Source: Candidatus Multivoradales bacterium (GTDB taxonomy: Bacteria > Acidobacteriota > Thermoanaerobaculia > Multivoradales > JAHEKO01). Taken from it: 64,000 nt of DNA. The position numbers and the translations under genes were made by a program. The stretch spans positions 236,015 to 300,014 of the forward strand of contig OZ245024.1 in the NCBI GenBank assembly GCA_965223875.1, in the 5' to 3' direction. The notes beneath the pieces were generated by a model. It worked only from the letters and a program-made list of their open reading frames with translations. It did no database searches and was not told the origin of the DNA. Positions 44,026-62,632 of this stretch are shown piece after piece; position 1 is the stretch's first letter; each line of letters starts with the position of its first letter.

Positions 44026-44031
44026 TCAGGG

Positions 44032-48104: not shown

Positions 48105-50156
48105 ATGAGCGCGCAGAGGGTCATGGACGAGCTCGCTTCCTATCTGCCGCTCCTGGTCGCGGTCGTCGCCCTGGTGTTCCTGCAGCGGACGCGTTTCTGG
48201 GGCGCTGTGCTAGCCCAATTCGGTCAGCTCGCCGCGCGGCGGAGGCTGGCGGTCCTTCTCGTGGGTGCTGTCGCGACGGTTCATTTCGCGGCTCTGGCTC
48301 TCTATCACTGGCCGCTGCCGATCTATGCCGACGAATTCAGCTATCTCCTGATGGCGGACACCTTCTCCGAAGGCCGCCTGACCAACCCGACGCCCCCCCT
48401 CCCCTACCTGCTCTGGGCACCCGACGTCATCTTCGAGCCCACCTACCAGTCGAAGTACCCGCCGGCCCAGGGGGTCGCGCTCGCCCTGGGCGGTCTGCTC
48501 GGTGATCCCCTGGTCGGAGTCTGGCTGAGCATGGCGGCGGCGGCCGCGGCGACCTGCTGGATGATGCAGGCCTGGCTGACGCCCCGCTGGGCGCTCGTCG
48601 GCGGACTTCTCGTCGCCACCCACAAGGCGATCGGCACCTTCTGGGGAGCGACCTACTTCGGCGGCGCGATGGCGATGCTCGGCGGCGCCCTCCTCTTCGG
48701 CGGTCTGCCGCGACTCTTCCGCCGGCAGAGCATCGGCCCAGCACCGGCGATCGGCTCAGCACCGGCGATCGGCCCGGCACTGGCGATCGGCCCGGCGCTG
48801 GCGATTGGCACGGGCCTCGCCCTTCTCGCCAACAGCAGGCCGTTCGAGGGACTCGTGGCGAGCCTTCCGGCCGCCTTCGTGATGCTCGTCTGGCTGGTTC
48901 GCGAGCGACGCTTCGCTCGGGGCGTGGTCCTTCGCCGCGTGCTCGTGCCGATCGCTGTCGTCCTGGGACTGGTCGGGCTGGGGATGGGGACCTACCATCG
49001 AGCCGTCACCGGGAATCCGCTGCGAATGCCCTACCAGGTGTTTCTCGAGAGCAGCAACGTCGCCAACGTCGCGCTGCCGGGCGAGCCCCAGGCGCGCAAG
49101 GCGGCGGAGCCTCCGGCTCTCGTCGAGCGACACTTCAAGTTCTTCACTCTCGGCGGTGATCCACACCTGTGGCTGCCGTTGCTGCTTCTACCGCTCGTCG
49201 TTCGGCGCGACCGGTGGATGCAGCTCGCCCTGGTGACGACTCTGCTCACCTACCTGGCCGTCTGGTTCACCGTTCTCGCCTCGGCGCACTACGCGGCGCC
49301 GGTGACCGCCCTGGTCTTCACTCTCTACCTTCAGAGCGTCCGTCACCTCCGCGTACTCCTGCGCCGTTGGCGGCTCGCCTTCCAGGTCTTCGTCGCCGTC
49401 TTTCTGACCTTCTGGGCACTGCAACTGTACGACTCGCCACGATTCCACGCGACGAAGATCCCTCCCGGGCACACCCACGAGTTCGCCCTTCTGCGCGCGG
49501 AGATCAACGAGGAGCTCTCTGAGCGTGGCGGCAGGCATCTCGTGGTGGTGCCCTGGGACAACGTGACGCCGCGGGTTCTCGCCTGGGTCCACAATCCTCC
49601 CGTTCCCGAACAAGCGGAGATCCTCTGGGCCTGGGAGGGGCCCGGACTGGCCGAGCGGTTCGGCGTTCGCACGGTGTGGCGGCTCGACGAGACCTCCTGG
49701 CCCCCCACCCTCGTTCCCTCCTCTAGCTCCCGGACCGCCTGGATCCTGCGCGGAGGCGGCGCACAGTCGACCCTGACGGTCGACGACGAGCGGGCGGTCG
49801 CGGTCGCAATCGGCGCCGCGGGCCCGGAGGCCCCGCCGGCCCGCCTCGTGCACGGACACCCCCCGCTACGAACCGGCGTACGTTACAGGATCGCATTCCG
49901 CGTGCGCTCGGACAGCGCGCGATCGATCGAGGTCCGGGTCGCGCGCGGCGACGGCCGAGAGCTCGGCGACGTTCGCTACCGACAGCACGAGCAGGTGGGG
50001 GTCGACTGGAAGGAGGTCGTCCTCGCCTTCGAGTCCGATCGCTTCCTCGAGCATGCCGCGGTCGAGATCGATCTCGGGAGCGGCGCCGGCAGGATCGAGA
50101 TCGAGGGATTCTCGATTCGCCCGGGCGATACGGCCGGCACCGAATCCGCTATCTGA
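48105..50156 (+). CDS. GT-C-like polytopic membrane protein (putative glycan/lipid-linked sugar transferase) with a C-terminal CBM-like beta-sandwich domain
   Basis: About 12 TM helices. An acidic DEFSY motif in the first extracytoplasmic loop, as in GT-C enzymes (ArnT/PMT DE motifs), and the conserved EPTYQSKYPPAQG. The C-terminal domain is soluble (RYRIAFRVRSD..IEVRV..IEIEGFSIRP). It has a paralog at 60608..62632. Confidence 0.5.
   Translation: MSAQRVMDELASYLPLLVAVVALVFLQRTRFWGAVLAQFGQLAARRRLAVLLVGAVATVHFAALALYHWPLPIYADEFSYLLMADTFSEGRLTNPTPPLPYLLWAPDVIFEPTYQSKYPPAQGVALALGGLLGDPLVGVWLSMAAAAAATCWMMQAWLTPRWALVGGLLVATHKAIGTFWGATYFGGAMAMLGGALLFGGLPRLFRRQSIGPAPAIGSAPAIGPALAIGPALAIGTGLALLANSRPFEGLVASLPAAFVMLVWLVRERRFARGVVLRRVLVPIAVVLGLVGLGMGTYHRAVTGNPLRMPYQVFLESSNVANVALPGEPQARKAAEPPALVERHFKFFTLGGDPHLWLPLLLLPLVVRRDRWMQLALVTTLLTYLAVWFTVLASAHYAAPVTALVFTLYLQSVRHLRVLLRRWRLAFQVFVAVFLTFWALQLYDSPRFHATKIPPGHTHEFALLRAEINEELSERGGRHLVVVPWDNVTPRVLAWVHNPPVPEQAEILWAWEGPGLAERFGVRTVWRLDETSWPPTLVPSSSSRTAWILRGGGAQSTLTVDDERAVAVAIGAAGPEAPPARLVHGHPPLRTGVRYRIAFRVRSDSARSIEVRVARGDGRELGDVRYRQHEQVGVDWKEVVLAFESDRFLEHAAVEIDLGSGAGRIEIEGFSIRPGDTAGTESAI
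48748..48819 (+). repeat. in-frame 18-nt x4 tandem repeat ((A/S)P(A/L)AIG) inside the GT-C-like gene
   Basis: ccagcaccggcgatcggc / tcagcaccggcgatcggc / ccggcactggcgatcggc / ccggcgctggcgattggc. The paralog at 60608..62632 lacks it. Confidence 0.7.
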
Positions 50157-50174
50157 TTGCAGTACGCTACGTCG

Positions 50175-51194
50175 ATGGCGAGCGAACCCTCTCGGCCGAC
50201 ATCGGTCTCCACCGTGGAGCGGCGTCAACAGAGCGCGTCGGAGACGGCGCGACTGGTCTCGGTCGTCATCCCAGCGAGGAACGAGGTCGGCACGATCGCC
50301 GACGCGATCTCGGCGGTTCTGGCGCAGGAGGTCGCCGGTGTGAGGTTGGAGGTCGTCATGGTCGATGACGGATCGACCGACGGGACCGTCGAGGCCGCCG
50401 AGGCGGCGGGAGCGCGAGTGCTCCGTCTCGGTACCGAGGGAGAGGGCGGCAGCCCGGCAGCGGCACGCAATCGCGGCGCCGAGCAGACCGGGGGCGATCC
50501 GATCATCTTCCTCGATGCCGACTGCACGCCGCTCGAGGGTTGGCTGGAAGCGATCCTCCAGGCGCACGACGGCGGAGCCGCGGTCGTCGGCGGGGCGCTC
50601 GACATGCCTCCGGGGCTCTCCCCCACCGCTCGCTGCGACTATTACTGCGGCTGGTACCTCATCCACAGTGGATGCCCGGCCGGCGACGTTCCGCACCACC
50701 CGCCGCCCTGTCTGAGCGTCCGTCGTGAGGCCTTCTTCAGTACGTCCCGGTTCAGCGAGGATCCGCCGCTGGTCTACACCAATGAGGAGCGCGCCTGGCA
50801 GGGAGAGCTACTGCGCCGCGGCGAGCGGATCTACTTCCAGCCTCGGGCGGTCGCCTACCACTACAATCGGTCCGGCTTCCTCAATCTGTTGAAGCGCAAC
50901 TATCGCTGGGCCTATACGGCGCTCGAGGCGAAGGGGCCGAGCGGCTCGGCGCGGTACTCCTGGCTCTACCGGCATCCGCGACTCCTGATCGTCGGTAGCC
51001 TGCCCTTGGCCGGGGCGCAGAGTCTCTACATTCTCGGCTGCTGGCTGAAGGCCGGCGTTTGGGAGCCGCTCTGGATGTTCCCGGGAATCCTCGTCTCGCG
51101 GGTCGCCTACGCGGCGGGGATGTCGGTCGGTGGAATCCGCTGGCTGCGCCGTGGACGGTCCGGACCGGCGGCCAAGGGCCCGCGTTGGGTATGA
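50175..51194 (+). CDS. family 2 glycosyltransferase
   Basis: VSVVIPARNE .. VVMVDDGSTDGT .. FLDADC (DxD). Starts 17 nt after the GT-C-like gene stop. Confidence 0.75.
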   Translation: MASEPSRPTSVSTVERRQQSASETARLVSVVIPARNEVGTIADAISAVLAQEVAGVRLEVVMVDDGSTDGTVEAAEAAGARVLRLGTEGEGGSPAAARNRGAEQTGGDPIIFLDADCTPLEGWLEAILQAHDGGAAVVGGALDMPPGLSPTARCDYYCGWYLIHSGCPAGDVPHHPPPCLSVRREAFFSTSRFSEDPPLVYTNEERAWQGELLRRGERIYFQPRAVAYHYNRSGFLNLLKRNYRWAYTALEAKGPSGSARYSWLYRHPRLLIVGSLPLAGAQSLYILGCWLKAGVWEPLWMFPGILVSRVAYAAGMSVGGIRWLRRGRSGPAAKGPRWV

Positions 51195-52207
51195 GCCGGG
51201 CCGACCTCACCGTAGCCATCTGCACCCGTGACCGGCCCGACGTGCTCGGCCGCGCCCTCGACTCCCTGAACGGGCAGTCCCGGCCGCCTCTCGAGATCCT
51301 GGTGGTGGACAACGCTCCGAGCGACGATGCGACCCGTCGACAGGTCGAGTCGCGCCACCCGGCCGGCGATGGGAGCCCCGCGGTGCGCTATGTCCGTGAG
51401 TCCGTGGCGGGTCTCGACTTCGCGCGCAACCGCGCCCTGGCCGAGGCGCGTGGTGAGATGGTGGCGTTCATCGACGACGATGCGGTCGCCGACAGCGGCT
51501 GGGTGGAGGCGATCGCCGAGGCCTACGGGGAAGGCCGCCGGGTCGGGGCCTGCTCGGGCCGCATCGAGCCTCTGGAGCTCGAGACGGCCGGCCAGAAGCT
51601 CTTCGAGTCGAACGGCGGTCTCTTCGCCGGTGGAGATCGCCGGGAGTCCATTCCCTCCGACCGGATCCGCTCGCGCTGGCACCGCTGGGTTCCGATGATC
51701 GCCTGGGCCGCCGGCTCCGGAAGTGGCTGCAATCTGTCGGTTCGTCGCGATCTCGCCCTCGAGCTGGGAGGCTTCGACGAGGCCCTGGATCTGGGCGCCG
51801 TACTGCCCGGAGGGGGCGACAACGACATGCTCTGGAGGATCCTCGAGTCCGGTGCGGAGGTGGTCTACGAACCGAGGGCGACGGTTCGTCACCAGCATCG
51901 GCGAGAGCTCGACCGGGTCGAGGAGCAGATCCTGGGACATCAACGCGCCCTCGTCGCTCTGACCACGAAAGCCCTTGCGAAGGCACGCGGTCGTGAGCGG
52001 CTCTCCGTCGGCCTGTTCCTGGTCTGGCGATTGCTCAAGCCGGGGGTGCGACTGCTGCGTCGGGCCGTCGGACGGGATCCGCTGCCGGCGCCGCTTCTGC
52101 TCGGCGTGTGGCGGCACTGCTGGCTCGGTCTCAGCGCCTACGCCGAGGGCGTGGAGGTGGCCGCCGAGCGGCGAAGCGCGGCGCTCGGGTCGCAAACGAG
52201 CTCGTAG
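51191..52207 (+). CDS. family 2 glycosyltransferase
   Basis: TVAICTRDRPD .. LVVDNAPSDD .. AFIDDDAV. ATGA overlap with the preceding GT2. Confidence 0.75.
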   Translation: MSRADLTVAICTRDRPDVLGRALDSLNGQSRPPLEILVVDNAPSDDATRRQVESRHPAGDGSPAVRYVRESVAGLDFARNRALAEARGEMVAFIDDDAVADSGWVEAIAEAYGEGRRVGACSGRIEPLELETAGQKLFESNGGLFAGGDRRESIPSDRIRSRWHRWVPMIAWAAGSGSGCNLSVRRDLALELGGFDEALDLGAVLPGGGDNDMLWRILESGAEVVYEPRATVRHQHRRELDRVEEQILGHQRALVALTTKALAKARGRERLSVGLFLVWRLLKPGVRLLRRAVGRDPLPAPLLLGVWRHCWLGLSAYAEGVEVAAERRSAALGSQTSS

Positions 52208-52277
52208 GCCCCGGGTCGTAGTCTGCACGATTCATCAGGCTCCGTCGACGCAGGAGGAGGCTGGTGAATCCTGCAGG

Positions 52278-54905
52278 CTAGTACCCGGTGGGCTGACGGA
52301 GCTTGCGAACGATCAGCGCGACGGCGACCAGCAGGATGGGCAGGTAGAGCAGCCCGAGAGGCCCTGCGAGAGCGCCCAGCAGGTCGCCCACCTTGTCTCC
52401 GGCGGAGAGATCCGAGCGAACGATGGCGCCCAACGCGATGAGCGCGTCGACCGGATTCCAGCTCTTCGCCGCCCGGACGACCTCCTTCATCGCTTCGGGG
52501 GTGCCGAAGCCTCCGAGAGCCCGAACGGCGCTGCGACGGGCCTCGCCCTCGCCCCAGCGGGCAATCGACGACAGCGGCTCCACAGCGCGCTCGTCACCCG
52601 TCGCGACCAGGGCGGCGCAGGTCTCGCGGGAGCCGGCGACGCAATCGAGGACGAGGGACCCGAGGGGCTCACCGAAGGCGTCGAGGGCCTTGCGGGCCTC
52701 TGCCACGACCTCCGGGTCGGTATCGTCCATCGCGCCGACGAGCGCGTCGATCGCCTCTTGGCCTCCGATGACCGACAGAGCCCAGACGGCGGCCAGGCGG
52801 ACATCGACGTCGCGATCGCGCAGTCGTCGCGCGAGCACGGGCAGGGATTCCTCGGCTCTCAGCCGGCCCAGCGCCCAGGTGGAGGCCATGCGGACTCGGT
52901 CCACGGGGTCGGTCAGCAGCTCGGTCAGTCGCGCGGTGGCCCGATCGTCCCGGTTGCGCCCCACGTACCAGGCGCCGATCTCGCGCATCCTGGCCTCGCG
53001 ATCCTGCAGGGTACCGAGCAGGACGTCGTCGACCTCGGGTCCGCCGATCGATGCGAGCGCCTCGGCCGCCGCGATGCGGACACCGACCCGGACATCGTGG
53101 ACGTTCTCGAGCAGCGGACCGATCGACGTATCGTCTCCCACCCTCGCGAGGGTGGCCAGAGCGGTGAGTCGGATGCGCAGATCGGTCTCCTCGAGCGCCT
53201 CGTTCATCAGGGAGGTCGTCACCGGAGGACCGATCATGGCGAGAGCTCGAAGGGCCGAGCGGCGGGTTTGGATGTGGCTCTCCCGGTAGGCGTCGATCAG
53301 CGGCTTGATGGTTCGAGCCTGGTGCCGCGAGGCGAGAGCCATGATCGCCGCATCGTTGCCGTCGAGGGCGAGGAAGATGCGCCGGCCCACCGGATCCTCG
53401 AGGGCCGCGAGCGCGCGGGCGATCGTCTCCCGCGCACCAGCGTCGCGATCCCCCATCGCCCGGACCAGTGCCGCGATGGCGCTCTTGTCGCCGATCGCTC
53501 CGAGGGCCGTGGCCACGGCTTCGCGAACCCCCGGATCGGGGTCGTCCAGCGCCTCGATCAGCGGCTCGACCGCCCGCGGGTCTTCGAGGGCGCCGAGAGC
53601 CGCGGCGGCCGATGTCCGCACGACCACATCCTCGTTGCGGAGCAGGACGAGAAGGTCGGAGATCGACTCGGTCTCGCCGAGCTGGCCCAGGGCCGCCGCG
53701 GTGTGGATCTTGTTCTCGGTCCGCAGATCGTCCAGATCGTCCTTGAGGTTGGCCAGGAATCGCTCGCGATCGATCGCCTCGAGGGCCGCCGTGACGGTGG
53801 GACGCTCCTCGGAGGAACCGTTCCAGAAAGCCTCCATCAGAGGTTCGAAGGTCACCGGATCCGCACGAACGCGAAGGGTCTGGGCCGCGGCGATGCGGAC
53901 GCGCGGACTGATGTCGTCCAAAGTGTCGAGGATCGGTCGTAGGACCCGGGGGTCGTCGACCTCGGCGACCCTCGCCATGGCCTCTTCATCGCCATCCAGG
54001 GCGTCAGCGACCAGGCGACTCCAGGGAACTCCGAGATCCTCGAGGGAGATCGCGCAGCTGTGGCGCAGCCGTGGAACGGAATAGCCCATGCAGACGATCA
54101 GAGGGCGTACTGCCTCTTCCCCCTGCAGACGCGCCAGGCCGAGTGCGGCGGCGGCGCGGGCGTCGGGATCCTCCTCGTCATCGGCGAGAGTCTGGGCGAA
54201 GGGACCCGCGGCGCGGACGTAGCCACCGTCGACGATCTCTTCCAGGGCTTCATCCGAGCCGCGGAGAGCTTCCAGAATCAGACCGGCAACGGGAGCGCCG
54301 AGCCGGTCGAGGGCCTGGAGGGAGGCCTCTCGGACGACCCGACTCGGATCCGACGCCAGGTCGACGAGCTGTGGGATCGAGCCGTCGTCGCCGAGGCGCG
54401 CCAGAGCCTCGGCCGTTGCGGCTCGAACCGAGACCGCCGGATCGCCGAGCGCCACCGTGACGGGTCCGATGGCGCGTGGATCCCTGAGCAGGCCGAGGGT
54501 TCGGGCCGCCGCGGCGCGGACCTCGATGACCGGATGGTCGAGGGCGGTGACGAAAGCTGGAAGGACCTCCGGCGCGCCGAGCTCGGAGAGCTCGATCATC
54601 GACAGCAGCGAGCCCTGCAGGCACTCGCAGACCAGGCTCCCGAAGCCGACGCCACGGGTCGTCAGCTCGCGCGAGGCTTTCTGGCAGGCATCGTTCTCCG
54701 GTCCGCCGAGGGCGGCGATGAGCTCCCCGACGCTGACCTCCCCGACGCTGACCTCGTCGACGCTGGCCTCCTCCTGGGACCGGAGCGGCTCCTGCGAGCG
54801 GGTCGGCCAGGGTCCTACGAGCGCGAGAAGGAGCGTCGCCGCGGCGACCAGAAGGGGCGGACGATGGCGGGCGAAGTGGCCTGAGCGGTGTGCTTTCGAG
54901 CTCAT
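52278..54905 (-). CDS. HEAT-repeat (PBS-lyase-type) protein, 875 aa, with an N-terminal signal peptide and a C-terminal TM anchor
   Basis: More than 20 HEAT-like repeats (xVRxxAAxALGxLGDPRAVxPL). C-terminal LLYLPILLVAVALIV. The start overlaps the stop of the upstream GT4 gene (ATGA). Confidence 0.7.
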   Translation of the reverse strand: MSSKAHRSGHFARHRPPLLVAAATLLLALVGPWPTRSQEPLRSQEEASVDEVSVGEVSVGELIAALGGPENDACQKASRELTTRGVGFGSLVCECLQGSLLSMIELSELGAPEVLPAFVTALDHPVIEVRAAAARTLGLLRDPRAIGPVTVALGDPAVSVRAATAEALARLGDDGSIPQLVDLASDPSRVVREASLQALDRLGAPVAGLILEALRGSDEALEEIVDGGYVRAAGPFAQTLADDEEDPDARAAAALGLARLQGEEAVRPLIVCMGYSVPRLRHSCAISLEDLGVPWSRLVADALDGDEEAMARVAEVDDPRVLRPILDTLDDISPRVRIAAAQTLRVRADPVTFEPLMEAFWNGSSEERPTVTAALEAIDRERFLANLKDDLDDLRTENKIHTAAALGQLGETESISDLLVLLRNEDVVVRTSAAAALGALEDPRAVEPLIEALDDPDPGVREAVATALGAIGDKSAIAALVRAMGDRDAGARETIARALAALEDPVGRRIFLALDGNDAAIMALASRHQARTIKPLIDAYRESHIQTRRSALRALAMIGPPVTTSLMNEALEETDLRIRLTALATLARVGDDTSIGPLLENVHDVRVGVRIAAAEALASIGGPEVDDVLLGTLQDREARMREIGAWYVGRNRDDRATARLTELLTDPVDRVRMASTWALGRLRAEESLPVLARRLRDRDVDVRLAAVWALSVIGGQEAIDALVGAMDDTDPEVVAEARKALDAFGEPLGSLVLDCVAGSRETCAALVATGDERAVEPLSSIARWGEGEARRSAVRALGGFGTPEAMKEVVRAAKSWNPVDALIALGAIVRSDLSAGDKVGDLLGALAGPLGLLYLPILLVAVALIVRKLRQPTGY

Positions 54906-56132: not shown

Positions 56133-56810
56133 TCACTCCGACTCGGACTCCTCCTTCGGCCTGCGAACCTGGCCGCGGGGCGACTCGAACACGGTCTGCT
56201 CGTCCGCGAGGCGGACCAGCCTCACGTCGGCCAGCTCGACCGAGTAGCGGTTGCCGCCGAAGTTGAACTGGAGAGAGGCGGCGTCCTCGTCCTCTTCGAT
56301 GAAGACCCGGGTCTGGTAGCTCTTCCAGAGCGGAGTCACCTTGACTTCGATGACAGTTCCCAATCCTCGATAGGGAGGTGTGGCCTGCGACGCGCCGACG
56401 CTGAACTCGCGCGGTCCGTCGGCCCGGGCGCGGAAGCGGACCGCGTATCCCGTCTTGCCCTCAAGGGGGAATGGCCCGAGTCCGAGGCGGATGTGCCAGG
56501 CGAGGCCCGTCGGCACGCGACCGATGGCCACCCGGGGCTGGCTCCGGTCTCCGGTCGGGAACTCCAGCTCGGCTTCGTTGCCGAGGCGGTTGCGCAGAGC
56601 CCAGGTCACGCGTCGTTCCCTGCCCGGCCGTGGGGTCGAGGTGCTCTCCGCGACCTCCTCCTGTTCGGGCGCCTCCCCTTCCGCGGTGGGCGGGCCGACC
56701 GGTTCCTCTGCCGCCGGGTCCGCGGTCTCCTGCGCCCAGGTGAGAGAGGCGAGAAAGACGAGCGCGGTCGAAGCTGTCAGGCGTCTCCAGGGCGATCCGT
56801 CGGCGAACAT
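56133..56810 (-). CDS. secreted CBM-like beta-sandwich protein
   Basis: Signal peptide, an acidic linker, then a domain (GYAVRFRARADG..SLQFNFGGNRYSVELADVRLVRL) resembling the C-terminal domains of the two GT-C-like proteins. Confidence 0.45.
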   Translation of the reverse strand: MFADGSPWRRLTASTALVFLASLTWAQETADPAAEEPVGPPTAEGEAPEQEEVAESTSTPRPGRERRVTWALRNRLGNEAELEFPTGDRSQPRVAIGRVPTGLAWHIRLGLGPFPLEGKTGYAVRFRARADGPREFSVGASQATPPYRGLGTVIEVKVTPLWKSYQTRVFIEEDEDAASLQFNFGGNRYSVELADVRLVRLADEQTVFESPRGQVRRPKEESESE

Positions 56811-56835: not shown

Positions 56836-58986
56836 TCAGCGGGAGACGCGCTCGGCCACGACTCTTGCGAGCCAGCGTATCAAACTGCCGGAGCGTCTCA
56901 GGATCATGATCAACAGATCGAATCGCTCCCGCTGGCTCATGCTGCCATCCGCGAGGCGAATCCGTGGATCGAGGTCGCTCGACTCAAGAACCGCGCGGCT
57001 CGACTCGTCCTCCATGCGCTCGAGGAGGATCGAGCGCATGCGGAGGCTGGCCGGGTACGAGGGCTCGGTCCGCTCCGGGTCGGATTGGCGTGCGAGGACC
57101 TCGGGGAGCGACACGGCCGACCAGCCGGAGAGCAGGATGGCGTTGACGAGGTCCCAGAGCGCGAAGGAGCCGCGCAGGGCGGGTCGGAAGGGCCCCGCGC
57201 CGGTCAGAGCGTCCCAGCGGAAGACGCTTCCCGGAGCCGCGTCATTGCGCAGCCACTGGGCGGGCAGCTCCGGGCAGGGGCGGATGCGGTAGGGGCACTC
57301 GCCGGACCGCTGCTCGGTCCAGAACGAGACGACGCCGATCTCGGCCCGCCGCTCGAGCACGGCGGTAGAGCGTTCGATGAAGCGCGGCTCGAAGTGATCC
57401 GATGCGGTGGCGAAGGCGACGCCGATGGGCTCGACTTCCTGACTCTCGAGGGCGGCGAGCGCCGCATTGGCTGCCGATGCGGTGCTCCCGTGGCGGGCCA
57501 TGGGGATCAGCCGGGTGTGCTCGGACCAACCCGCGAGATCCTCCTCGCTCCACTCCCCTCCCAGGACGATGGCCCGTGGCGGTACAGACTGCGCCTTGAG
57601 CGAGGGGATACAACTCCTTCGAGCGGCGTCGGGTGCGGAATCGAGGTCCTCGCCGACGACGATCGCGACACCGGTCCCGCTGCCGACCTCGACGGGCGGT
57701 CTGCCGGCCACGCTGGTGAGAAGAGACCTCTCGGCACCGCGCGCCACCACCCGGCGCCGGAAATCGAGCTGGCGGCTAATCACCTCCTCGTTGTCGCACT
57801 GCTGACGAACCCGGCGGATGGCCTCGCGACCCATCTCGGCGAGACGTTCCGGACCGGTGGCGAGCGCCCGCTCGAGCGTCCGTGCCAGCTCCACGTCGTC
57901 AGAGTCGGCGGCGAGCCATCCGGAGCGCCCGTCCTCGACGAGCTCGGCCATGCCGCCTTCGCGGGTCGTGAGTACGGGCAACCCGGAGGACATCGCCTCG
58001 ATGCAGGTGTTCGGATAGTTGTCCCAGCGTGACGGGACCACGCACAGAGAGGCTTCGGACAGGTAGCGGGTGACCTCGGAACGGGGCCGCCGGCCGTGGA
58101 AGCGGAACCGATCGCGCAGCTGTGTGGGTATCCGCCGTTCGACGATCGCCCAGCCGGGCAGGGTGCCGTCCCCGAGGACGTTCTCGCCGACGAAATCGAA
58201 ACTGCACCGGGGGTCCCGGCTGGCGACGGCGACCGCGGCGTCGAGCCACTCGAGAACGCCCTTGCGCCCCTCCAGCCGGCCCAGATAGCAGATGCGGCGT
58301 GACTCCCATACAGCCGGTCGGCGCTCGATCGGAGCGATCTCCCCGACCGGATAGCCGATGATCTCGATCTCGCTCTCGGGTCTCCCGTATCGGGCGGCGA
58401 CCTGGGCGGCCAGGTATCGGCTCGGACTCAACACCGCGTCCGCGGTGCGGATGCTGTAGCCCTCGTAGCGCGCCGCGATCAGCCCGGGGTGCCCGATCTG
58501 GTAGTCGTTGTTGCGCAGGATCAGCTCGGTCGGCGAGTGCAGATGAACGATCACCGGGGCCGTCGGAGCGTCGCTGAGCCCGAGAGCGCGCCGCAGCAGC
58601 AGGAAGTAGAGCGGCGCCTCGTACTCCTGAGCTTCGATGACGTCGATCGCTTCGTCGGCGGCGAGTCGCTCCGCGAGTTGCGCCGCCTGCCAGGCGAAGG
58701 CGAGCGGGTAGTACTCGCTGGCGAACAGCCGGCGAGCCTCCTGGGGAAGAGCGGCATGCGGTCGTCTAGGCAGGCGCGAGCGCCAATCGATCCAGGGAAG
58801 GCGGTGCACGGTGAGGTGACCGCCTCGGGTGATCTCGACGCTCTCCTCGGCGTCGGCCCACTGCTGGGCGATGACGTGGACGGTCTCTCCATGCGCGGCG
58901 AGAAGCTGCGCGATGTTGCGCGCGTAGGTACCGATGCCGCCGCCGTGTGCGGGCGGATACTCGGGACAGATGAGCAGGTGCCTCAT
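56836..58986 (-). CDS. bifunctional glycosyltransferase (N-terminal GT4 plus a C-terminal additional domain)
   Basis: N-terminal GT-B/GT4 (MRHLLICPEYPPAHGGGIGTY .. VVPSRWDNYPNTCIEAMSSGLPV). C-terminal region of about 300 aa of unclear family. Confidence 0.65.
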   Translation of the reverse strand: MRHLLICPEYPPAHGGGIGTYARNIAQLLAAHGETVHVIAQQWADAEESVEITRGGHLTVHRLPWIDWRSRLPRRPHAALPQEARRLFASEYYPLAFAWQAAQLAERLAADEAIDVIEAQEYEAPLYFLLLRRALGLSDAPTAPVIVHLHSPTELILRNNDYQIGHPGLIAARYEGYSIRTADAVLSPSRYLAAQVAARYGRPESEIEIIGYPVGEIAPIERRPAVWESRRICYLGRLEGRKGVLEWLDAAVAVASRDPRCSFDFVGENVLGDGTLPGWAIVERRIPTQLRDRFRFHGRRPRSEVTRYLSEASLCVVPSRWDNYPNTCIEAMSSGLPVLTTREGGMAELVEDGRSGWLAADSDDVELARTLERALATGPERLAEMGREAIRRVRQQCDNEEVISRQLDFRRRVVARGAERSLLTSVAGRPPVEVGSGTGVAIVVGEDLDSAPDAARRSCIPSLKAQSVPPRAIVLGGEWSEEDLAGWSEHTRLIPMARHGSTASAANAALAALESQEVEPIGVAFATASDHFEPRFIERSTAVLERRAEIGVVSFWTEQRSGECPYRIRPCPELPAQWLRNDAAPGSVFRWDALTGAGPFRPALRGSFALWDLVNAILLSGWSAVSLPEVLARQSDPERTEPSYPASLRMRSILLERMEDESSRAVLESSDLDPRIRLADGSMSQRERFDLLIMILRRSGSLIRWLARVVAERVSR

Positions 58987-59020
58987 TCCGCGTCGGGGAG
59001 CCGTGGCATGCCTTCGGCGG

Positions 59021-59752
59021 CTAGCCGTCCCAGGCCCAATAGGCCTCCATGACGGTGTCGGCGTCGCCGGTCATCTTGACCCGCCCCTGATCGAGCCACA
59101 CCGCGCGCTCACACAGACCTCTCGCTGTCTCCAGGTCGTGCGTCACCACTACCAGGGTGCCGCCTCCGGCGCGGAACTCGCGCAGACGGTCGAGGCACTT
59201 CTCCCGGAACTCGCGATCCCCCACCGCGAGCACCTCGTCGAGGATGAGCACCTCGGCCTCGACGCAGACGGCGACCGCGAAGGCGAGTCGGGCCTGCATG
59301 CCGGAGGAGTAGTACTTGACCGGCGTCTCGATGAAGTCTCCGATGTCGGCGAAATCGACGATCTCCTCGTAGCGCTCGCGCAGTGCCTGACGGGACAGCC
59401 CCATGATGGCTCCATAGAGTGCCACGTTCTCGGCGCCGGTCAGGTCGGGCTGGAATCCGGCACCGAGCTCGATGACCGTCGCCACCCGACCGTTCACCTC
59501 GATCGTGCCGGAGGTCGGCTCGTAGATGCCGGCCATGAGTCGCAGGGAGGTGCTCTTGCCGGCACCGTTGCGCCCGATCAGGACGACGCCCTCCCCCGCT
59601 TCGACGGTGAGGTCGAGGCCCTCGAGCGAGAATTCGGGCCGCTTCACACTGATCGGCTGGCGGCGGACCGTACGGCGAAAAATCTCGCGCAACGAGGTCG
59701 TCCGGTGCTCGTAGATGTAGAACCGTTTGACCACATCGCGGCAGACGATCAT
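59021..59752 (-). CDS. ABC transporter ATP-binding protein (Wzt/TagH-like polysaccharide exporter)
   Basis: Walker A GRNGAGKST, the signature YSSGMQARL and Walker B ILILDE. Start moved to MIVCRDVVK. Confidence 0.8.
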   Translation of the reverse strand: MIVCRDVVKRFYIYEHRTTSLREIFRRTVRRQPISVKRPEFSLEGLDLTVEAGEGVVLIGRNGAGKSTSLRLMAGIYEPTSGTIEVNGRVATVIELGAGFQPDLTGAENVALYGAIMGLSRQALRERYEEIVDFADIGDFIETPVKYYSSGMQARLAFAVAVCVEAEVLILDEVLAVGDREFREKCLDRLREFRAGGGTLVVVTHDLETARGLCERAVWLDQGRVKMTGDADTVMEAYWAWDG

Positions 59753-59768
59753 CGGCCGCGCGGTGGCG

Positions 59769-60611
59769 TCAGACGATTTCAGCGGCGATGGCTTTGTATC
59801 GATTGAAGATGGCATAGCCGATGACGAACAGGACCAGACCGAGGGCGGTGGCCCCAGCCAGCGTCAACAGATCCGGCACTCTCCCGTGGTAGAGCACTTC
59901 CTGGAAGAGCGTGAGGATGGGTGCGAACGGGTTCACGATGTACCAGATCTGGAACGCTTCGGGTACGAAGTCGATGGGATAGAAGACGGGCGTCAGGTAG
60001 AAGAGGGCCACGATGACGATCGGCAGTACGTGCTGGGCATCGCGGTAGAAGGTCGAGACGGTGGCGATCGGCAGGGCCAGGCCGGCGGTCACCAGGGTCA
60101 GGGGGATGAAGAGGACGGGAACGAAGAGGAAGCTCATCGGCACCGCCTGGTGGTGGCCGACAGCGAGGACCAGCGCCACGAGGACGATCTCGGCGGAGAA
60201 TTCGATCACCCTCGTAGCGATCGCGGAGAAGACCAGAATCTCGCTCGGGAAACGGACGCTGCGACGCAGGCTGCCGTGATTCGCCAGGATCGTCGTCGAC
60301 GAGCTGAGACCCTGGGAGATGGTGTTCCAGGCGAAGAAGCCGCTCAGCAGGAAGGCCCAGTAGTGGTTCATCGGGATCTTCACGATGTGGGTGAAGACCG
60401 CCGACAGGATCGCCACCATGAAGAGGGGGTTGAGCAACGTCCAGAGAAAGCCGAGCAGGGACCGCTCGTACTTCACCTTGAGGCCCCAGCGCACGAGGTT
60501 GCGCAGCAGCTCGCGGTAACGCCAGACCTCTCGGAAGTGCCCCAGGAACGAGGTTCTCCGGCCGCCGCCGGCGAGCGTCCCGGCGTCGCCCGATCGCATC
60601 GAAAGACTCAA
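59769..60611 (-). CDS. ABC-2 type transporter permease (Wzm/TagG-like)
   Basis: Six TM helices and the ABC-2 signature region. ATGA overlap with the upstream GT-C paralog. Confidence 0.8.
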   Translation of the reverse strand: MSLSMRSGDAGTLAGGGRRTSFLGHFREVWRYRELLRNLVRWGLKVKYERSLLGFLWTLLNPLFMVAILSAVFTHIVKIPMNHYWAFLLSGFFAWNTISQGLSSSTTILANHGSLRRSVRFPSEILVFSAIATRVIEFSAEIVLVALVLAVGHHQAVPMSFLFVPVLFIPLTLVTAGLALPIATVSTFYRDAQHVLPIVIVALFYLTPVFYPIDFVPEAFQIWYIVNPFAPILTLFQEVLYHGRVPDLLTLAGATALGLVLFVIGYAIFNRYKAIAAEIV

Positions 60612-62632
60612 GATTCGTCTCCTTCTGATCTCTCGTCAAGGGGCTGCAACCAGACGTCGGCGATCTCGACCGAGGCCCCCGAACCGCCGAAGTTGATAAG
60701 CAGTCGGGGTACCTCGTAGTCCTCTTCGGCGCGGAACCCGAAAGCGAATCGACGCCATTCGCGCCCCACCCTGAGCCGCCGTCTGAGGCCGAGATTCGCC
60801 CAGGGTTCGAGGCTCTGGGTGACACCGAGTCCCAGCGGACGCTCGGCCTCCGCCCGCGCCCGGAACCCGCCGATGTACATCTTCCCCTTCTGCAACGGCG
60901 GGAAGGCCCGCTCGGCCTGGAGAAACCACTGCTGCTCCCCAGGGTCGACGACCTCGAGGTGCACGGGGTCGGTGGCGTTGGCGTTGGGCAGCAGGACGCT
61001 GTGCGCCTCGCCGTGCTCTCTCAGGTACCAGGTGCGGCGCTCGGCGGCCGGGAAGTCCCGCATGGTCCACGGATCGAGCTCGGGCTCGATCAACCAGACC
61101 CTCCTGTCCGGATAGTGCGAGAGCAGCGGCCACAGCGGCCGGTTGTCGAGCCACCGCGCCCAGACGATCTTCGAGCCGTCGATGTCGGCGCGGTTGTAGA
61201 CCCACTCGCGGTGGCGGGTGCTGTTCTCGGCGTACTTCACGACAACGAGGTGCCGATCCCCGTCCTCCTCGAGCCGTCTCTTGTGATGGGGTCTCGCCAG
61301 GATGGCCCAGCGCGAGAACCGCTCCCAGAGCTGCCGATCCTCGATCTTGGACAGATCGTGAACGTCGGGAATCGGAACCGGCGGCGGCTTGGCGACGTAG
61401 CTCGCATCGCGCTTGTACTCCCAGTAGGAGAGCTCGCGCAGGAAGTGTGAGTAGTTGTTGTGGAAATAGAGTGCCAGACAGGCCGCCACGAACGCCGTCG
61501 CCACGACCCGCCAGCGGATCCAACTCGAGATGATCGCCAGGGACTGTACGACCAGGCCGATCCCGAGGCCGGCGACCGGTGCGGAGTAGTGCGGCACCGC
61601 GCCACGGGTGAAGGCCGTGGCGACGATCGTCAGCAGGAAGGTGCCCAGGGCGAAACGACCCCAACGGCTCTTGAGCAGCCAGCGCAGGGCCACGAGTATC
61701 AGCAGAGCGTAGTAGCGCTCACCGCCGATGTGGTGGATGAACTGACGGTCGGATCGGAGAATGATCTGGTCGCGCACGTTCTCGGCACGCTGGCGGTTCA
61801 CCGGCTTGGCGTCGGGATCGAAGAAGGCGTCGTTCCCATAGCGCTCCAGATAGACCTGGTACGGCAGCCGGATGGGGTCTCCCGTTACCCGATAGTTGTA
61901 GTAGAGCACCCAGGCGCCGCCGAGGGCCAGGATCAGGGTCAGGGGCGCGACCACGCCCCGCCAGACGCGGCGCGGGGGGAACTCCCGCTGCCTCACCAGC
62001 CAGACCAGGAAGACCAGCGCTGCGGGCAACGCCGCCACCAGGCCCTCGTAGGGGCGGCTCAGGGCGAGGAGCAGGAGTCCGGTGCCGATGAGGAGTCCGT
62101 AGCGGGGACGGGGATCGCGCATCGCCCGGATCAGGGCGCCGAACAGGAGGGCGCCACCGAGCATCGCCACCGAGCCGCCCATGAACGTACCGCCCCAGAA
62201 ACGCAGGTTGCCGACATTGAAGGCCGCCGCCAATCCGCCGAGCACCGCCCAGCGGGTCGGCAGCCACGCCTTGAGCATCCAGGCGACAGCGGTACAGGCC
62301 GCCGCGAAGCTCAGCCAGACCCCGACGAGCGCCGAGCCGAAGAGGATCTGACCCACCGCCAGGGCCATCCCCTGACCGGGCGGGTACTTCGACTGGTAGG
62401 TCGGCTCCTCCAGCACGTGAATGGTCTCGAAGAAGCGCCAGAGCACATGGCTGGGGTTGGTCAGGCGGAACGAAGAATAGGTGTCGGAAGCCAGAAGGTA
62501 GCTGAACTCGTCCTGGATCTGGGGGAACGTCGGCATGAAGTGGTTGAGAATCCAGCACAGCACGATCGTGCAGAGGAAAACCAGGGCCAGCGGCGTGCCG
62601 GGACGCCGCAGCAGTTGTCTCAAACCACTCAT
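60608..62632 (-). CDS. GT-C-like polytopic membrane protein with a C-terminal CBM-like domain (paralog of 48105..50156)
   Basis: Shares DEFSYLL, EPTYQSKYPPGQG, VGVWLS and AMLGGALLFG blocks with the first copy. C-terminal soluble domain (MYIGGFRARAE..LINFGGSGASVEIADVWLQPL). Confidence 0.5.
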   Translation of the reverse strand: MSGLRQLLRRPGTPLALVFLCTIVLCWILNHFMPTFPQIQDEFSYLLASDTYSSFRLTNPSHVLWRFFETIHVLEEPTYQSKYPPGQGMALAVGQILFGSALVGVWLSFAAACTAVAWMLKAWLPTRWAVLGGLAAAFNVGNLRFWGGTFMGGSVAMLGGALLFGALIRAMRDPRPRYGLLIGTGLLLLALSRPYEGLVAALPAALVFLVWLVRQREFPPRRVWRGVVAPLTLILALGGAWVLYYNYRVTGDPIRLPYQVYLERYGNDAFFDPDAKPVNRQRAENVRDQIILRSDRQFIHHIGGERYYALLILVALRWLLKSRWGRFALGTFLLTIVATAFTRGAVPHYSAPVAGLGIGLVVQSLAIISSWIRWRVVATAFVAACLALYFHNNYSHFLRELSYWEYKRDASYVAKPPPVPIPDVHDLSKIEDRQLWERFSRWAILARPHHKRRLEEDGDRHLVVVKYAENSTRHREWVYNRADIDGSKIVWARWLDNRPLWPLLSHYPDRRVWLIEPELDPWTMRDFPAAERRTWYLREHGEAHSVLLPNANATDPVHLEVVDPGEQQWFLQAERAFPPLQKGKMYIGGFRARAEAERPLGLGVTQSLEPWANLGLRRRLRVGREWRRFAFGFRAEEDYEVPRLLINFGGSGASVEIADVWLQPLDERSEGDES

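Follow-up and report, generated by a model that had tools for sequence, protein, structure and literature searches.

Results

Two paralogous membrane proteins flank glycan export genes

What do two large paralogous membrane proteins do on either side of a set of polysaccharide genes? The question is raised by a 64,000-nucleotide stretch of DNA from Candidatus Multivoradales bacterium, analyzed here (the window). As can be seen in Table 1, these proteins, which we call A and B, enclose two GT2 and two GT4 glycosyltransferases, a Wzm-like ABC-2 permease, a Wzt-like ATPase and an 875-aa HEAT-repeat protein. The original prediction was that they bracket an ABC-transporter-dependent glycan locus. 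A and B do flank the glycan genes, but the locus continues past B with a GT4 gene whose frame is open to the window's edge, and thus runs beyond position 64000. The first residues of this last product align with the C terminus of GT4 models, and it is 47% identical to an 871-aa GT4 protein of a related locus (L088). Dependence on an ABC transporter holds, since the ATPase scores on TagH (3e-60) and galactan Wzt/RfbE (8e-60) models, and the permease on galactan Wzm/RfbD (3e-18) and KpsM (4e-7) models.

GT2a starts 18 nt downstream of the stop of A, and the ATG of GT2b, a start codon read from the translation, overlaps the stop of GT2a; A, GT2a and GT2b thus form one operon. The start of A is supported by its orthologue P0030 (58% identity), with which the alignment begins at residue 1. 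On the opposite strand, the annotated Wzm start overlaps the stop codon of B, and the final gene of the operon encodes the HEAT-repeat protein, which has hydrophobic segments at its N and C termini (residues 17-35 and 848-866).

Table 1. Positions in the window, strand and basis of assignment for the features discussed
Feature	Position	Strand	Basis
DPM1/AglJ-type GT2, 235 aa, candidate polyprenyl-phosphate-hexose synthase	8216..8923	+	AglJ model 1.5e-35
Dlt-like operon, divergent from and adjoining A	42580..48056	-	
SGNH-type protein	42580-~43760	-	
DltC-like carrier	~43778-44035	-	
DltA-like ligase	44032-45591	-	AMP-binding
DltB-like MBOAT	45588-46796	-	DltB model 4e-53
DltX-like peptide, 43 aa, ends FRYQGF	46834-46965	-	
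Anchored protein, 364 aa	46962-48056	-	
Paralogue A, 683 aa	48105..50156	+	GC3-based gene calling
DEFSYLL motif of A	48330-48350		
CBM4-like domain of A	about 49737-50132		
GT2a, 339 aa, GT-A glycosyltransferase, two C-terminal hydrophobic helices	50175..51194	+	Pfam Glycos_transf_2 1e-25
GT2b, second GT2	51191..52207	+	Pfam Glycos_transf_2 4e-21
HEAT-repeat protein, 875 aa	52278..54905	-	HEAT_2 5e-97, 14 stretches
GT4 glycosyltransferase, 399 aa	54902..56101	-	Glycos_transf_1 and Glyco_trans_4_4
Standalone CBM4-like protein, 225 aa, secreted	56133..56810	-	Match to CBM of B
GT4 with C-terminal extension of ~300 aa, 716 aa	56836..58986	-	GT4 domains at residues 16-402
Wzt-like ABC ATPase, 264 aa	59021..59815	-	ABC_tran
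Wzm-like ABC-2 permease	59769..60611	-	ABC2_membrane 1e-17
Paralogue B, 674 aa	60608..62632	-	GC3-based gene calling
CBM4 domain of B, all-beta (residues ~535-665)	60638-61030	-	AF2 model
Family-specific periplasmic alpha/beta domain of B (residues ~427-530)	61043-61354	-	AF2 model
GT-C membrane domain of B	residues 1-~400	-	AF2 model
DEFSYLL motif of B (D41-E42)	62492-62512		
Multi-domain GT4 protein, C-terminal part	62710..64000	-	Frame open at window's end

A and B belong to a large, uncharacterized family

A and B, claimed beforehand as paralogues of about 680 aa sharing conserved blocks, are indeed 35% identical over 659 columns (BLASTP, E=2e-85), and the alignment contains the blocks DEFSYLL, EPTYQSKYPP(A/G)QG, VGVWLS and AMLGGALLFG. 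Their family, clustered at 50% identity, has at least 9,000 representatives and is present in Acidobacteriota, Planctomycetota and Verrucomicrobiota. Across 61 members sharing ~40% identity, some 28 positions are invariant, including D41, E42, Y79, Y83, R193, P194, E196 and G197, while K82, H348 and Y349 are nearly so; A and B both retain the invariant residues. The core family, of ~550 aa, lacks a carbohydrate-binding module (CBM) and occurs mostly in non-glycan contexts. CBM-bearing members form one clade, with two or three paralogues per genome; in this genome, the third stands alone, outside glycan clusters. A full-text literature search found no experimentally characterized member.

The membrane part is predicted to adopt a GT-C fold

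The membrane part of A and B is not recognized by Pfam, NCBIfam or PDB-sequence profiles: none of the 61 members matches a Pfam or NCBIfam GT-C model, and a search of PDB sequences with the family profile gave no match. In an AlphaFold2 model of B (pLDDT 93, pTM 0.91), a membrane domain of 11 helices with the GT-C fold is followed by a periplasmic alpha/beta domain and then by a beta-sandwich of the CBM4 fold. In Foldseek, the first of these matches EmbA/B, STT3, ArnT, ALG9/12 and AftA at 10-14% identity. The probability is 1.00 for EmbA/B (which give the best E-values, 8e-7), yeast, human and archaeal STT3/AglB, ArnT (5ezm, TM 0.49), ALG12 (TM 0.56), ALG9 and AftA, and no membrane fold other than GT-C is found among the best 50 matches. 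The GT-C likeness proposed from sequence is thus borne out by a high-confidence model and five solved GT-C families, and A and B are most likely inner-membrane glycosyltransferases of this predicted fold. The proposal that they are not obviously ArnT, PMT or Wzy also stands: hhalign gives 1.4% probability against Escherichia coli ArnT, and no strong match to an O-antigen ligase or Wzy was found.

The short loops of B carry seven Lys and Arg residues inside and two outside, which is consistent with a cytoplasmic N terminus, 11 transmembrane helices, and alpha/beta and CBM4 domains in the periplasm; the apparent signal peptide of the free CBM paralogue points the same way. The invariant Asp-Glu of DEFSYLL would then lie at the opening of the first periplasmic loop, where the catalytic acid of solved GT-C enzymes resides. 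The fold alone leaves the class of donor unfixed, since enzymes with diphosphate-linked oligosaccharide donors, namely STT3/AglB, are among the matches.

CBM4-like domains occur in B, in A and as a free secreted protein

The CBM-like C-terminal domain predicted for both paralogues is best supported in B, where it matches 1gui by sequence (E=1.2e-9) and by fold (Foldseek E=4.9e-9, TM 0.71), with further CBM4-fold matches to 3k4z, 4bj0 and 3p6b. For A the evidence is weaker: its C terminus aligns with that of B through to the end, Pfam CBM_4_9 reaches just E=0.23, and there is no match among PDB sequences. The third, standalone copy is confirmed by the 225-aa protein, which is 32% identical to residues 528-662 of B over 137 aa (E=4e-11), and matches A just at E=0.03 and 1gui at E=0.01. 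Its N terminus, MFADGSPWRRLTASTALVFLASLTWA/QE, reads by inspection as a signal peptide; after it come an acidic and proline-rich linker and, spanning residues 62-200 or so, the CBM. L088 has a homologous CBM domain at the equivalent place (35%, E=6e-19).

The cytoplasmic enzymes resemble those of other Wzm/Wzt loci

GT2a, whose exact 339-aa product is P0386, has hundreds of homologues at 60-70% identity. Its orthologues lie immediately upstream of Wzm-Wzt in two loci (L084 and L085) and, in L086, are followed by a YfhO-type GT-C and then Wzm-Wzt; they accompany Wzm/Wzt and not the GT-C family of A and B. GT2a belongs to the conserved enzyme core of Wzm/Wzt loci in Acidobacteriota and Gemmatimonadota. 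Its model (pLDDT 88) is nearest PcManGT, WrtF, RmlT and TarS/TarP, and it is probably a chain-building or adaptor glycosyltransferase of the cytoplasmic face. We considered it as a donor synthase and rejected this, GtrB, ArnC and DPMS being absent from its best 50 structure matches.

GT2b matches the NCBIfam MftF-type, HpsE and AglG models, and the 399-aa GT4 is 49% identical to the GT4 preceding GT2a in L086. The 716-aa GT4, a likely polymerizing enzyme, has a full-length orthologue in L088 (54% identity); its C-terminal part has no Pfam family, and on visual inspection looks like a degenerate GT-A module. The 264-aa ATPase here lacks the carbohydrate-binding Wzt_C extension, which is present in its 423-427-aa relatives from L085 and L086. 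On the other side of A, the six Dlt-like genes are syntenic with A and GT2a in a further locus (L089), at 58-81% identity, and could plausibly esterify the same polymer.

Family neighborhoods point to a lipid-phosphate-sugar donor

Of 80 loci in other genomes, each from a different species, 33 have a GT2 no more than three genes away from the family gene, mostly one of the polyprenyl-phosphate-sugar synthase type. When the 37 GT2 neighbors and the window's two GT2 proteins were scanned (n=39), 31 matched the AglJ model, 30 the Dol-P-hexose transferase model, 28 PpgS, 23 ArnC (best 6e-59) and 18 PgfS (best 2e-81). The member P0142 carries a fused UbiA module, which scores on decaprenyl-phosphate phosphoribosyltransferase models (4e-22) and is homologous to a Rhizobium phosphoribosyltransferase (2.5e-17), and in L088 a UbiA gene and the family's GT-C gene are translationally coupled. 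These associations suggest that A and B use polyprenyl-phosphate-sugars. Between 42 and 64 kb, no gene encodes a polyprenyl-phosphate-sugar synthase or a flippase of the GtrA, SMR or MATE type. A candidate synthase at 8216..8923 (Dol-P-hexose transferase model, 4e-18; Pyrococcus furiosus Dol-P-Man synthase 5mlz, 6e-6) could possibly act in trans as the source of the donor; it is 40 kb away, amid housekeeping genes, and nothing ties it to the locus.

Discussion

In this soil-type Acidobacterium, A and B most likely add sugars to a polysaccharide after its export. In the form that we favor, and consider reasonably probable, they are periplasmic glycosyltransferases that modify the Wzm/Wzt-exported glycan from lipid-phosphate-sugar donors while CBM4 holds the polymer. 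The GT4 and GT2 enzymes would assemble a lipid-linked polysaccharide at the cytoplasmic face and Wzm/Wzt would export it, whereupon A and B would move sugars from polyprenyl-phosphate-sugars onto the polymer, as residues of side chains or chain ends or as short extensions, their CBM4 domains keeping the chain at the active site. With their more diverged CBMs, A and B probably add different residues or linkages. The secreted 225-aa protein may bind the same polymer in the periplasm, and the Dlt-like operon may modify it by esterification.

An unlikely alternative is that B, A or both pass on the whole undecaprenyl-diphosphate-linked polymer after export, with lipid A-core, peptidoglycan, protein or another glycan as the final acceptor and the CBM recognizing the donor polymer. 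PglB/STT3 transfer oligosaccharides en bloc, and STT3 and AglB are among the top fold matches of B, which is translationally coupled to Wzm/Wzt. Moreover, no WaaL/Wzy_C-type ligase, donor synthase or flippase was found in the locus, which leaves it without an obvious attachment enzyme. However, synthases that make monophosphate-linked single sugars are the commonest family neighbors, and UbiA/phosphoribosyltransferase fusions and adjacencies occur as well; a user of diphosphate-linked glycans would need neither. The oligosaccharyltransferase signature WWDYG was not found in the translation of B, and two or three paralogues per genome suit decoration more than ligation.

It is distinctly unlikely, too, that only a short primer is exported, on which A, B and the third paralogue processively build a second polysaccharide domain from lipid-phosphate-sugars, with CBMs giving processivity. 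The model for this is arabinan synthesis on exported galactan by EmbA/B/C and the Aft enzymes; the Emb fold matches, the three CBM-bearing paralogues, the scores of Wzm and Wzt on mycobacterial galactan-exporter models and the family's UbiA/DPPR-synthase-like fusions and neighbors all fit. Against this, the locus already has four or five cytoplasmic glycosyltransferases, including multi-domain GT4 proteins of the sort typically seen where a polymer is made in full. Among the window genes scanned, there was no UbiA/DPPR synthase or epimerase gene, and processivity is not readable from sequence. This scheme differs from decoration after export solely in the extent of the reaction.

That the acceptor is instead LPS core/lipid A, a glycolipid or envelope proteins, as with ArnT or PMT, seems quite improbable; proximity to Wzm/Wzt would then reflect envelope co-regulation, and the CBM would anchor or localize the enzyme. 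Besides the non-glycan contexts of the core family, two relatives adjoin LtaS/EptA-like sulfatase-family membrane enzymes, and the CBM-bearing P0006, P0004 and P0121 are orphans outside glycan clusters, so the acceptor need not be a product of neighboring genes. Nevertheless, the CBM4 fold is of a kind that binds polysaccharide chains, B overlaps Wzm, the free CBM lies inside the same operon and recurs in L088, and other CBM-bearing members (L083, L088) sit in GT4/GT2 clusters. Finally, it is hardly credible that A and B are scaffolds or glycan receptors that have lost transferase activity, since an acidic motif and ~28 invariant positions kept in 61 sequences and both paralogues are typical of an active site under selection.

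Decoration by A and B after export has precedents in GT136 ORF12, GacL and Emb/AftD. The extracytoplasmic transfer or modification step proposed in the original prediction is supported, but it is not unusual in principle, since post-export glycosylation by a CBM-carrying GT-C enzyme is documented (GT136 ORF12, PMC11127046). The same source also places CBMs in EmbC and AftD and has that of EmbC affecting arabinan length, which would fit processive building (PMC11127046). The strategy is known, then, and it is the protein family carrying it out here that is uncharacterized. GT136 ORF12 itself has 11 transmembrane helices and a CBM that binds unmodified O-polysaccharide (PMC11127046); like A and B, it joins a GT-C domain to a C-terminal CBM in an ABC-transporter-dependent locus.

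A glycan export locus with two paralogous membrane proteins

Paralogues A (683 aa) and B (674 aa) had originally been predicted to bracket an ABC-transporter-dependent glycan locus. Since the DNA of the window is high in GC (~68%), we called its genes by third-position GC (GC3). The predicted layout is present, with a Wzm-type ABC-2 permease and a Wzt-type ATPase encoded beside two GT2 genes, two GT4 genes and a further GT4-containing gene, in a window that elsewhere harbors FtsY, HisRS, SMC and similar genes. The AspRS encoded in the window shares 66-68% identity with Thermoanaerobaculia sequences, and the DNA is accordingly chromosomal, from an uncultured acidobacterium. A and B do hold flanking positions, but B is not the edge of the locus, which runs on past it. 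On the plus strand, 18 nt separate the stop of A from the ATG of GT2a, the stop of which overlaps the ATG of GT2b. The minus strand carries, 5' to 3', the GT4-containing gene, B, Wzm, Wzt, the 716-aa GT4 protein, the 225-aa protein, the 399-aa GT4 and the HEAT-repeat protein, and the stop of B overlaps the annotated start of Wzm. No initiating phosphoglycosyl transferase (WecA/WbaP type) was found among the window ORFs scanned; this enzyme may be encoded outside the window.

Features of the window, in coordinate order
Feature	Coordinates	Strand	Details
DPM1/AglJ-type GT2, 235 aa	8216-8923	+	AglJ 1.5e-35; Dol-P-hexose transferase 4e-18; 5mlz 6e-6
Dlt-like operon	42580-48056	-	anchored 364-aa protein; 43-aa DltX-like peptide (46834-46965, ends FRYQGF)
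Dlt-like operon, DltB-like MBOAT		-	NCBIfam 4e-53; plus DltA-like AMP-binding ligase
Dlt-like operon, DltC-like carrier (LLDSFS motif)		-	plus SGNH-type protein with GDS motif
A	48105-50156	+	GC3 gene call
GT2a	50175-51194	+	GC3 gene call; two C-terminal membrane helices
GT2b	51191-52207	+	GC3 gene call
HEAT-repeat protein, 875 aa	52278-54905	-
GT4, 399 aa	54902-56101	-
225-aa protein	56133-56810	-	CBM4-like
GT4 protein, 716 aa	56836-58986	-
Wzt	59021-59815	-	ABC_tran; galactan Wzt and TagH models; 264 aa
Wzm	59769-60611	-	ABC2_membrane; galactan Wzm model
B	60608-62632	-	GC3 gene call
GT4-containing gene	62710 to beyond 64000	-	frame open at window end

Three components of the locus deserve separate mention. 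The Wzt of the window is without the carbohydrate-binding extension Wzt_C; the Wzt proteins encoded after GT2a orthologues in relatives (L085:8802-10085 and L086:12166-13437) are 423-427 aa long and carry it. In the product of the GT4-containing gene, the motif GEILPPPAEV(E/G)GVGVF recurs after ~290 residues; this product shares 47% identity with a multi-GT4 protein of 871 aa in a related locus (L088), so that a multi-module polymerase is its probable identity. The HEAT-repeat protein, encoded by the final gene of the glycan operon, has no fewer than 14 HEAT repeats and a hydrophobic segment at either end; we saw no homologue of it in the related loci, and such proteins are not usual in ABC-transporter glycan loci.

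A and B are paralogous, sharing 35% identity over 659 columns (E = 2e-85), and their alignment contains the four common blocks DEFSYLL, EPTYQSKYPPxQG, VGVWLS and AMLGGALLFG exactly as first reported. Outside the window, the 5.05-Mb contig codes for one more full-length paralogue (P0007), the third, which shares 47% identity with B. The claim that the C-terminal domain also exists as a standalone secreted protein was borne out as well: the 225-aa protein aligns with residues 528-662 of B (32% identity, E = 4e-11) and has, as judged by inspection, a signal-peptide-like N terminus. In a four-way alignment, the C-terminal regions of A, B, the 225-aa protein and one relative display a common W...Y...FR.R...W...G pattern.

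B combines a GT-C membrane core with a CBM4 module

Even at E ≤ 10, no Pfam or NCBIfam model matched A or B, save for a weak match of A to CBM_4_9 (E = 0.23). In the AlphaFold2 model of B, built on 61 homologues (pLDDT 93, pTM 0.91), two parts found matches when searched against the PDB with Foldseek. The membrane part, predicted to be GT-C-like, matched in the top 50 GT-C enzymes only, from five families (EmbA/EmbB/EmbC, STT3/AglB, ArnT, ALG9/ALG12 and AftA), with a probability of 1.00, TM scores of 0.4-0.56 on the target and 10-14% sequence identity. As for the C-terminal domain, the expected β-sandwich has a CBM4 fold in B, matching 1gui both by fold (E = 4.9e-9, TM 0.71) and by plain sequence search (E = 1.2e-9), with further fold matches to 3k4z, 4bj0, 3p6b and 1gu3. 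The CBM_4_9 model is matched by eight members of the subfamily (best 1.2e-7), and the 225-aa protein matches 1gui at E = 0.01; by sequence, A and the 225-aa protein may be counted as CBM4 mainly via their homology to B. Between the membrane part and the CBM lies a conserved α/β domain (residues ~427-530 of B), in which W477, N480, W491 and W513 are invariant.

Two acidic residues, D41 and E42, are invariant in the 61 sequences, are both kept in A, and in the B model open the helix that follows TM1 (residues 13-32). Helix positions in this model, and the Lys and Arg content of the short loops (seven on the proposed inside versus two on the outside), fit an N-in, 11-TM, C-out topology for B; the free CBM paralogue, with its putative signal peptide, fits a periplasmic location of the C-terminal domain. 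Such a topology would place D41-E42 at the start of the first periplasmic loop, and it is at this first-loop position that solved GT-C enzymes, and ORF12 of Citrobacter youngae O1 (the founding member of GT136), carry their catalytic acid. Residues D41, E42, K82, R193, E196, H348 and Y349 presumably cluster in space. We hold with high confidence that A and B are GT-C-fold enzymes with a periplasmic CBM4.

A and B belong to a large unnamed family

The sequence family of A and B is new, large and so far unnamed within the GT-C fold, and its CBM4-bearing clade parallels GT136 and Emb. A word-indexed search retrieved at least 3,996 relatives, nearly all of ~550 aa, labeled "hypothetical" and devoid of Pfam domains. 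In an exhaustive profile search of 1.84 billion cluster representatives, 9,073 scored at E ≤ 1e-3, of which 6,743 also reached E ≤ 1e-10, and we put the family at no fewer than 9,073 representatives at 50% identity. A one-genome-per-species scan yielded at least 589 loci, the best 80 of which are distributed among Acidobacteriota (the majority), Planctomycetota, Verrucomicrobiota, Rokubacteria, Binatia and delta-proteobacterial lineages. A search for family members on plasmids found none among 72,556.

The original prediction had also stated that the proteins are not obviously ArnT, PMT or Wzy, with which our searches agree. Models PMT_2 and PMT (GT83 ArnT and GT39) matched neither A nor B at E ≤ 10 and none of the 61 members at E ≤ 0.1, while the Pfam models for Wzy_C (O-antigen ligase/Wzy), YfhO, GT87 and Emb matched neither A, B nor the 61 members. 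Kinship with Escherichia coli ArnT at the sequence level was rejected, with an hhalign probability of 1.4%. More generally, no GT-C Pfam model gave a firm match in the 61 members, the sole marginal Pfam matches being to DUF6056 (two members, 1e-4) and Glyco_transf_22 (one member, 0.03), and the family profile found zero matches among PDB sequences. UniRef names one member "RgtA/B/C/D-like domain-containing," and full-text searches of the literature found no description of the family.

In a tree computed on core columns only, the 12 CBM-extended proteins form a single clade, consisting of two deep branches, one with A and the other with B. A CBM-sized C-terminal extension is found in ~3 of the 150 best representatives.

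Family members are associated with synthases of lipid-linked single sugars

ORFs were called in each of the 80 loci, and the three genes flanking the family gene to either side were grouped into clusters. GT2 enzymes make up the largest of these (37 genes in 33 loci), which we scanned against NCBIfam together with the two GT2 of the window. The 39 proteins matched the models for AglJ (31), dolichyl-phosphate hexose transferase (30), PpgS (28), ArnC (23, best 6e-59) and PgfS (18, best 2e-81), that is, enzymes loading a single sugar onto polyprenyl phosphate. At least one of the two GT2 of the window (GT2a, AglJ 1.2e-9) is itself a generic AglJ match, so that the numbers for ArnC and PgfS are the more specific indicators. 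UbiA-type enzymes are a second class of partner. In P0142, a family member from another metagenome, an N-terminal UbiA module is fused to the GT-C; this module matches decaprenyl-phosphate phosphoribosyltransferase models (4e-22) and is homologous to the phosphoribosyltransferase of a Rhizobium three-component system (2.5e-17). L088 contains a UbiA gene that overlaps with the stop codon of a B-clade GT-C gene, and UbiA/PPPRS-like genes lie near the family gene in two further loci (L071 and L077). Other fusions, likewise in members from other metagenomes, join a PMT_2 GT-C in tandem with a family GT-C (P0250) and a TPR region with a GT-C (P0248). These GT2 and UbiA associations are, if indirectly, the classic signature of GT-C enzymes using monophosphate-linked single-sugar donors.

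Within the locus itself, no dedicated polyprenyl-phosphate-sugar synthase (a GT2 of GtrB/ArnC/DPM1 type) adjoins a GT-C gene. Pfam scans, and tblastn with UbiA queries, found no gene of GtrA/SMR/MATE type and no UbiA gene among the scanned window genes, nor did we find an extra GC3-supported ORF between 48 and 64 kb or decaprenyl-phosphate-arabinose pathway genes in the window. The only small-transporter-type gene seen in the window encodes an EamA transporter (10.7-12.0 kb). A DPM1/AglJ-type GT2, which also matches the Dol-P-Man synthase 5mlz, is encoded 40 kb away among housekeeping genes, with nothing further tying it to the glycan locus; going by its sequence matches, it is a possible candidate for a polyprenyl-phosphate-hexose synthase supplying the donor in trans.

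GT2a was considered as the lipid-linked donor synthase for A and rejected. Its best models are of MftF/EpsD type (MftF 1e-26), with ArnC at just 3e-6; its orthologues hold a conserved first position in Wzm/Wzt loci devoid of a family GT-C; and its structural model (pLDDT 88) is near PcManGT, WrtF, RmlT and TarS/TarP, the top 50 matches including neither GtrB, ArnC nor DPMS. In view of these scores, contexts and fold, GT2a more likely belongs to the ABC-transporter pathway, as a conserved enzyme of the cytoplasmic face, perhaps a primer or adaptor GT. It is unusually conserved, in that hundreds of proteins from Gemmatimonadota and Acidobacteriota share 60-70% identity with it, and its nearest fold is that of the minimal synthase-like mannosyltransferase PcManGT. 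Its orthologues directly precede Wzm-Wzt in L084 and L085, while the order in L086 (Gemmatimonadales) is GT4, GT2a, YfhO-family GT-C, Wzm, Wzt. The YfhO-family protein of this last locus (847 aa, L086:8321-10864) looks like a non-orthologous replacement of the GT-C partner.

A Dlt-like operon and other neighbors

Next to A, this diderm Acidobacterium carries a complete Dlt-like operon. All six of its genes are syntenic with A and GT2a in the metagenomic locus L089, at 58-81% identity. A general link of the family to Dlt/MBOAT genes was rejected, since none was matched in the 80 species-level loci and the association is confined to this close relative. Rejected, too, was the idea that the divergent 364-aa neighbor of A is an AlgX/SGNH homologue of the equivalent neighbor in L083 (E = 0.13, no similarity). 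Just past the operon lie genes for a reductive-dehalogenase-like 4Fe-4S protein and a class A β-lactamase-family protein (41402-42583 and 38027-39328, both on the minus strand), with no evident link to the glycan locus.

Among close relatives, P0004 and P0005 adjoin membrane proteins of an LtaS/EptA-like sulfatase family (L087:4591-6531 and L093:3429-5438; 646-669 aa, of LtaS/EptA size and type), so that such proteins are found beside CBM-bearing GT-C relatives on two independent contigs. By analogy, these sulfatase-family neighbors and the Dlt-like operon recall a teichoic-acid-modifying enzyme set. The ABC exporter and the Dlt-like operon suggest that the surface polymer made by some Acidobacteriota is decorated and possibly D-alanylated.

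Post-export decoration as the most probable explanation

Fold, motif, topology, the family-wide link to donor synthesis, the CBM4 and operon coupling together make post-export decoration the best explanation. According to this proposal, in which we have moderate confidence, A and B would transfer sugars from polyprenyl-phosphate-sugar donors to the Wzm/Wzt-exported polymer at the periplasmic face, and their CBM4 domains would tether that polymer to the enzyme.

Four alternatives were weighed. The enzymes might transfer a diphosphate-linked polymer en bloc to its final acceptor; we regard this as unlikely, the donors pointed to by the GT2 and UbiA partners being monophosphate-linked single sugars. 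We are a little more doubtful of processive, Emb-like elongation, which is in keeping with the fold matches of B and differs from post-export decoration in the extent of the reaction alone. That the acceptor is not the glycan of the locus seems improbable. Bearing on this last point, the contexts of close relatives are mixed: P0047 lies in a GT2/GT4/deacetylase cluster with a PMT_2 enzyme, and P0009 (L088) among orthologues of the multi-domain GT4 genes of the window, with a domain like that of the 225-aa protein at the same relative position, while P0006, P0004 and a cluster mate of the third paralogue are orphans, their conserved surroundings being unrelated to glycans. The context of the third paralogue was read from this cluster mate (P0121, L092:10001-12034), which stands alone between MsrAB, a SpoIIE phosphatase, DinB, a β-lactamase and DUF4097 on one side and an MscS-FHA protein and a Ser/Thr kinase on the other. 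The arrangement is common to at least three metagenomic relatives, L081 and L087 among the loci that show it. Finally, loss of catalysis is barely conceivable for proteins in which D41 and E42 are invariant.

Beyond post-export decoration, the CBM4-bearing clade of diderm Acidobacteriota could be the core of a two-stage assembly line similar to those for arabinogalactan or teichoic acid. Wzm/Wzt would export a primer glycan, which the GT-C family, not recognized before, would lengthen and branch in the periplasm and the complete DltXBACD-like system next to it would esterify. This scenario, which we consider speculative and on balance unlikely, is based on three CBM4-bearing paralogues per genome and a free periplasmic CBM. 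If true, the parent family (more than 9,000 representatives) would found a new CAZy GT family and be behind much of the envelope glycan diversity in Acidobacteriota, Planctomycetota and Verrucomicrobiota.

GT-C enzymes perform extracytoplasmic steps that underlie much of bacterial surface-glycan diversity, and Emb and ArnT are drug targets. The family described here escapes Pfam, NCBIfam and PDB sequence searches. Its members are common in phyla of soil and water that are abundant but little studied. Its recognition as GT-C, with the DEFSYLL motif and the link to lipid-phosphate-sugar synthases, makes thousands of genes annotatable and the family a candidate new CAZy family, while the CBM4-bearing clade offers a testable example of acceptor tethering.

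Comparison with known systems

The original observation is real and its interpretation is supported, and the closest described system is GT136 ORF12. A GT-C-fold protein of ~650 aa with 11 transmembrane helices, ORF12 has its catalytic Asp directly behind TM1 and ends in a periplasmic CBM; this module binds the O-polysaccharide in its unmodified form but can be dispensed with (Kelly et al., PNAS 2024, PMC11127046). Encoded in an ABC-transporter-dependent O-polysaccharide locus, it acts after export, uses undecaprenyl-phosphate-ribofuranose made by a UbiA-type enzyme, and is assigned to the EpsG family by CDD (PMC11127046). A and B have in common with it the predicted 11-TM architecture with a periplasmic domain after TM1, the C-terminal CBM, the type of locus and, as proposed, the logic of acting on an exported polymer. 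ORF12 itself was compared by description; in the sequence comparison its proxy was the Rhizobium CCGE531 GT-C, from a sister system cited in PMC11127046, which gave an hhalign probability of 0.4% and a BLASTP E value of 0.87. In contrast to ORF12, the 61 members match no EpsG or other GT-C model, and the family has an extra conserved α/β domain between the membrane part and the CBM. The UbiA-type donor synthase and the MATE/SMR flippase of GT136 systems were also not found among the called genes of the window, although UbiA partners do occur with other family members (L088 and P0142).

EmbA/EmbB/EmbC and AftD (GT53 and relatives) give the best fold E values for B (7bvf, 7bwr and 7bvh). Like A and B, they combine a GT-C with periplasmic CBM-type domains and occur as several paralogues per genome; their CBM-type domains bind the acceptor polysaccharide, and the glycan is exported by a Wzm/Wzt-type transporter. 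However, Emb proteins are longer (~1,050-1,090 residues) and only 11-13% identical to B, which does not match the Pfam Emb model. They have 15 transmembrane helices and a different type of CBM.

ArnT (GT83, PMT_2 clan) resembles B in having a membrane GT-C core followed by a C-terminal periplasmic α/β domain, and its structure 5ezm aligns with B over ~567 columns (TM 0.49). None of the 61 members matches PMT_2, however. ArnT itself is devoid of a CBM and modifies lipid A, not a polymer.

In the three-component systems for Gram-positive wall polymers (GacI/GacK/GacL for group A carbohydrate, CsbB/GtcA/YfhO for teichoic acids) and in the Shigella/Salmonella Gtr systems, a polymer made in the cytoplasm is exported and then decorated outside by a GT-C enzyme that uses an undecaprenyl-phosphate-sugar. 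For group A carbohydrate and wall teichoic acid, export is by an ABC transporter, and the teichoic acid case includes extracytoplasmic Dlt esterification. The L086 YfhO-family GT-C, in the slot beside the GT2a orthologue, is a parallel with CsbB/GtcA/YfhO. The differences are that A and B belong to another GT-C sequence family, that their source is a diderm Acidobacterium, and that the locus has no dedicated synthase or flippase. To our knowledge, none of the Gac, CsbB-YfhO or Gtr systems includes CBM4 fusions or a free CBM. Since post-export glycosylation by CBM-bearing GT-C enzymes is already established, the mechanism is not categorically new, and the advance is one of breadth rather than principle.
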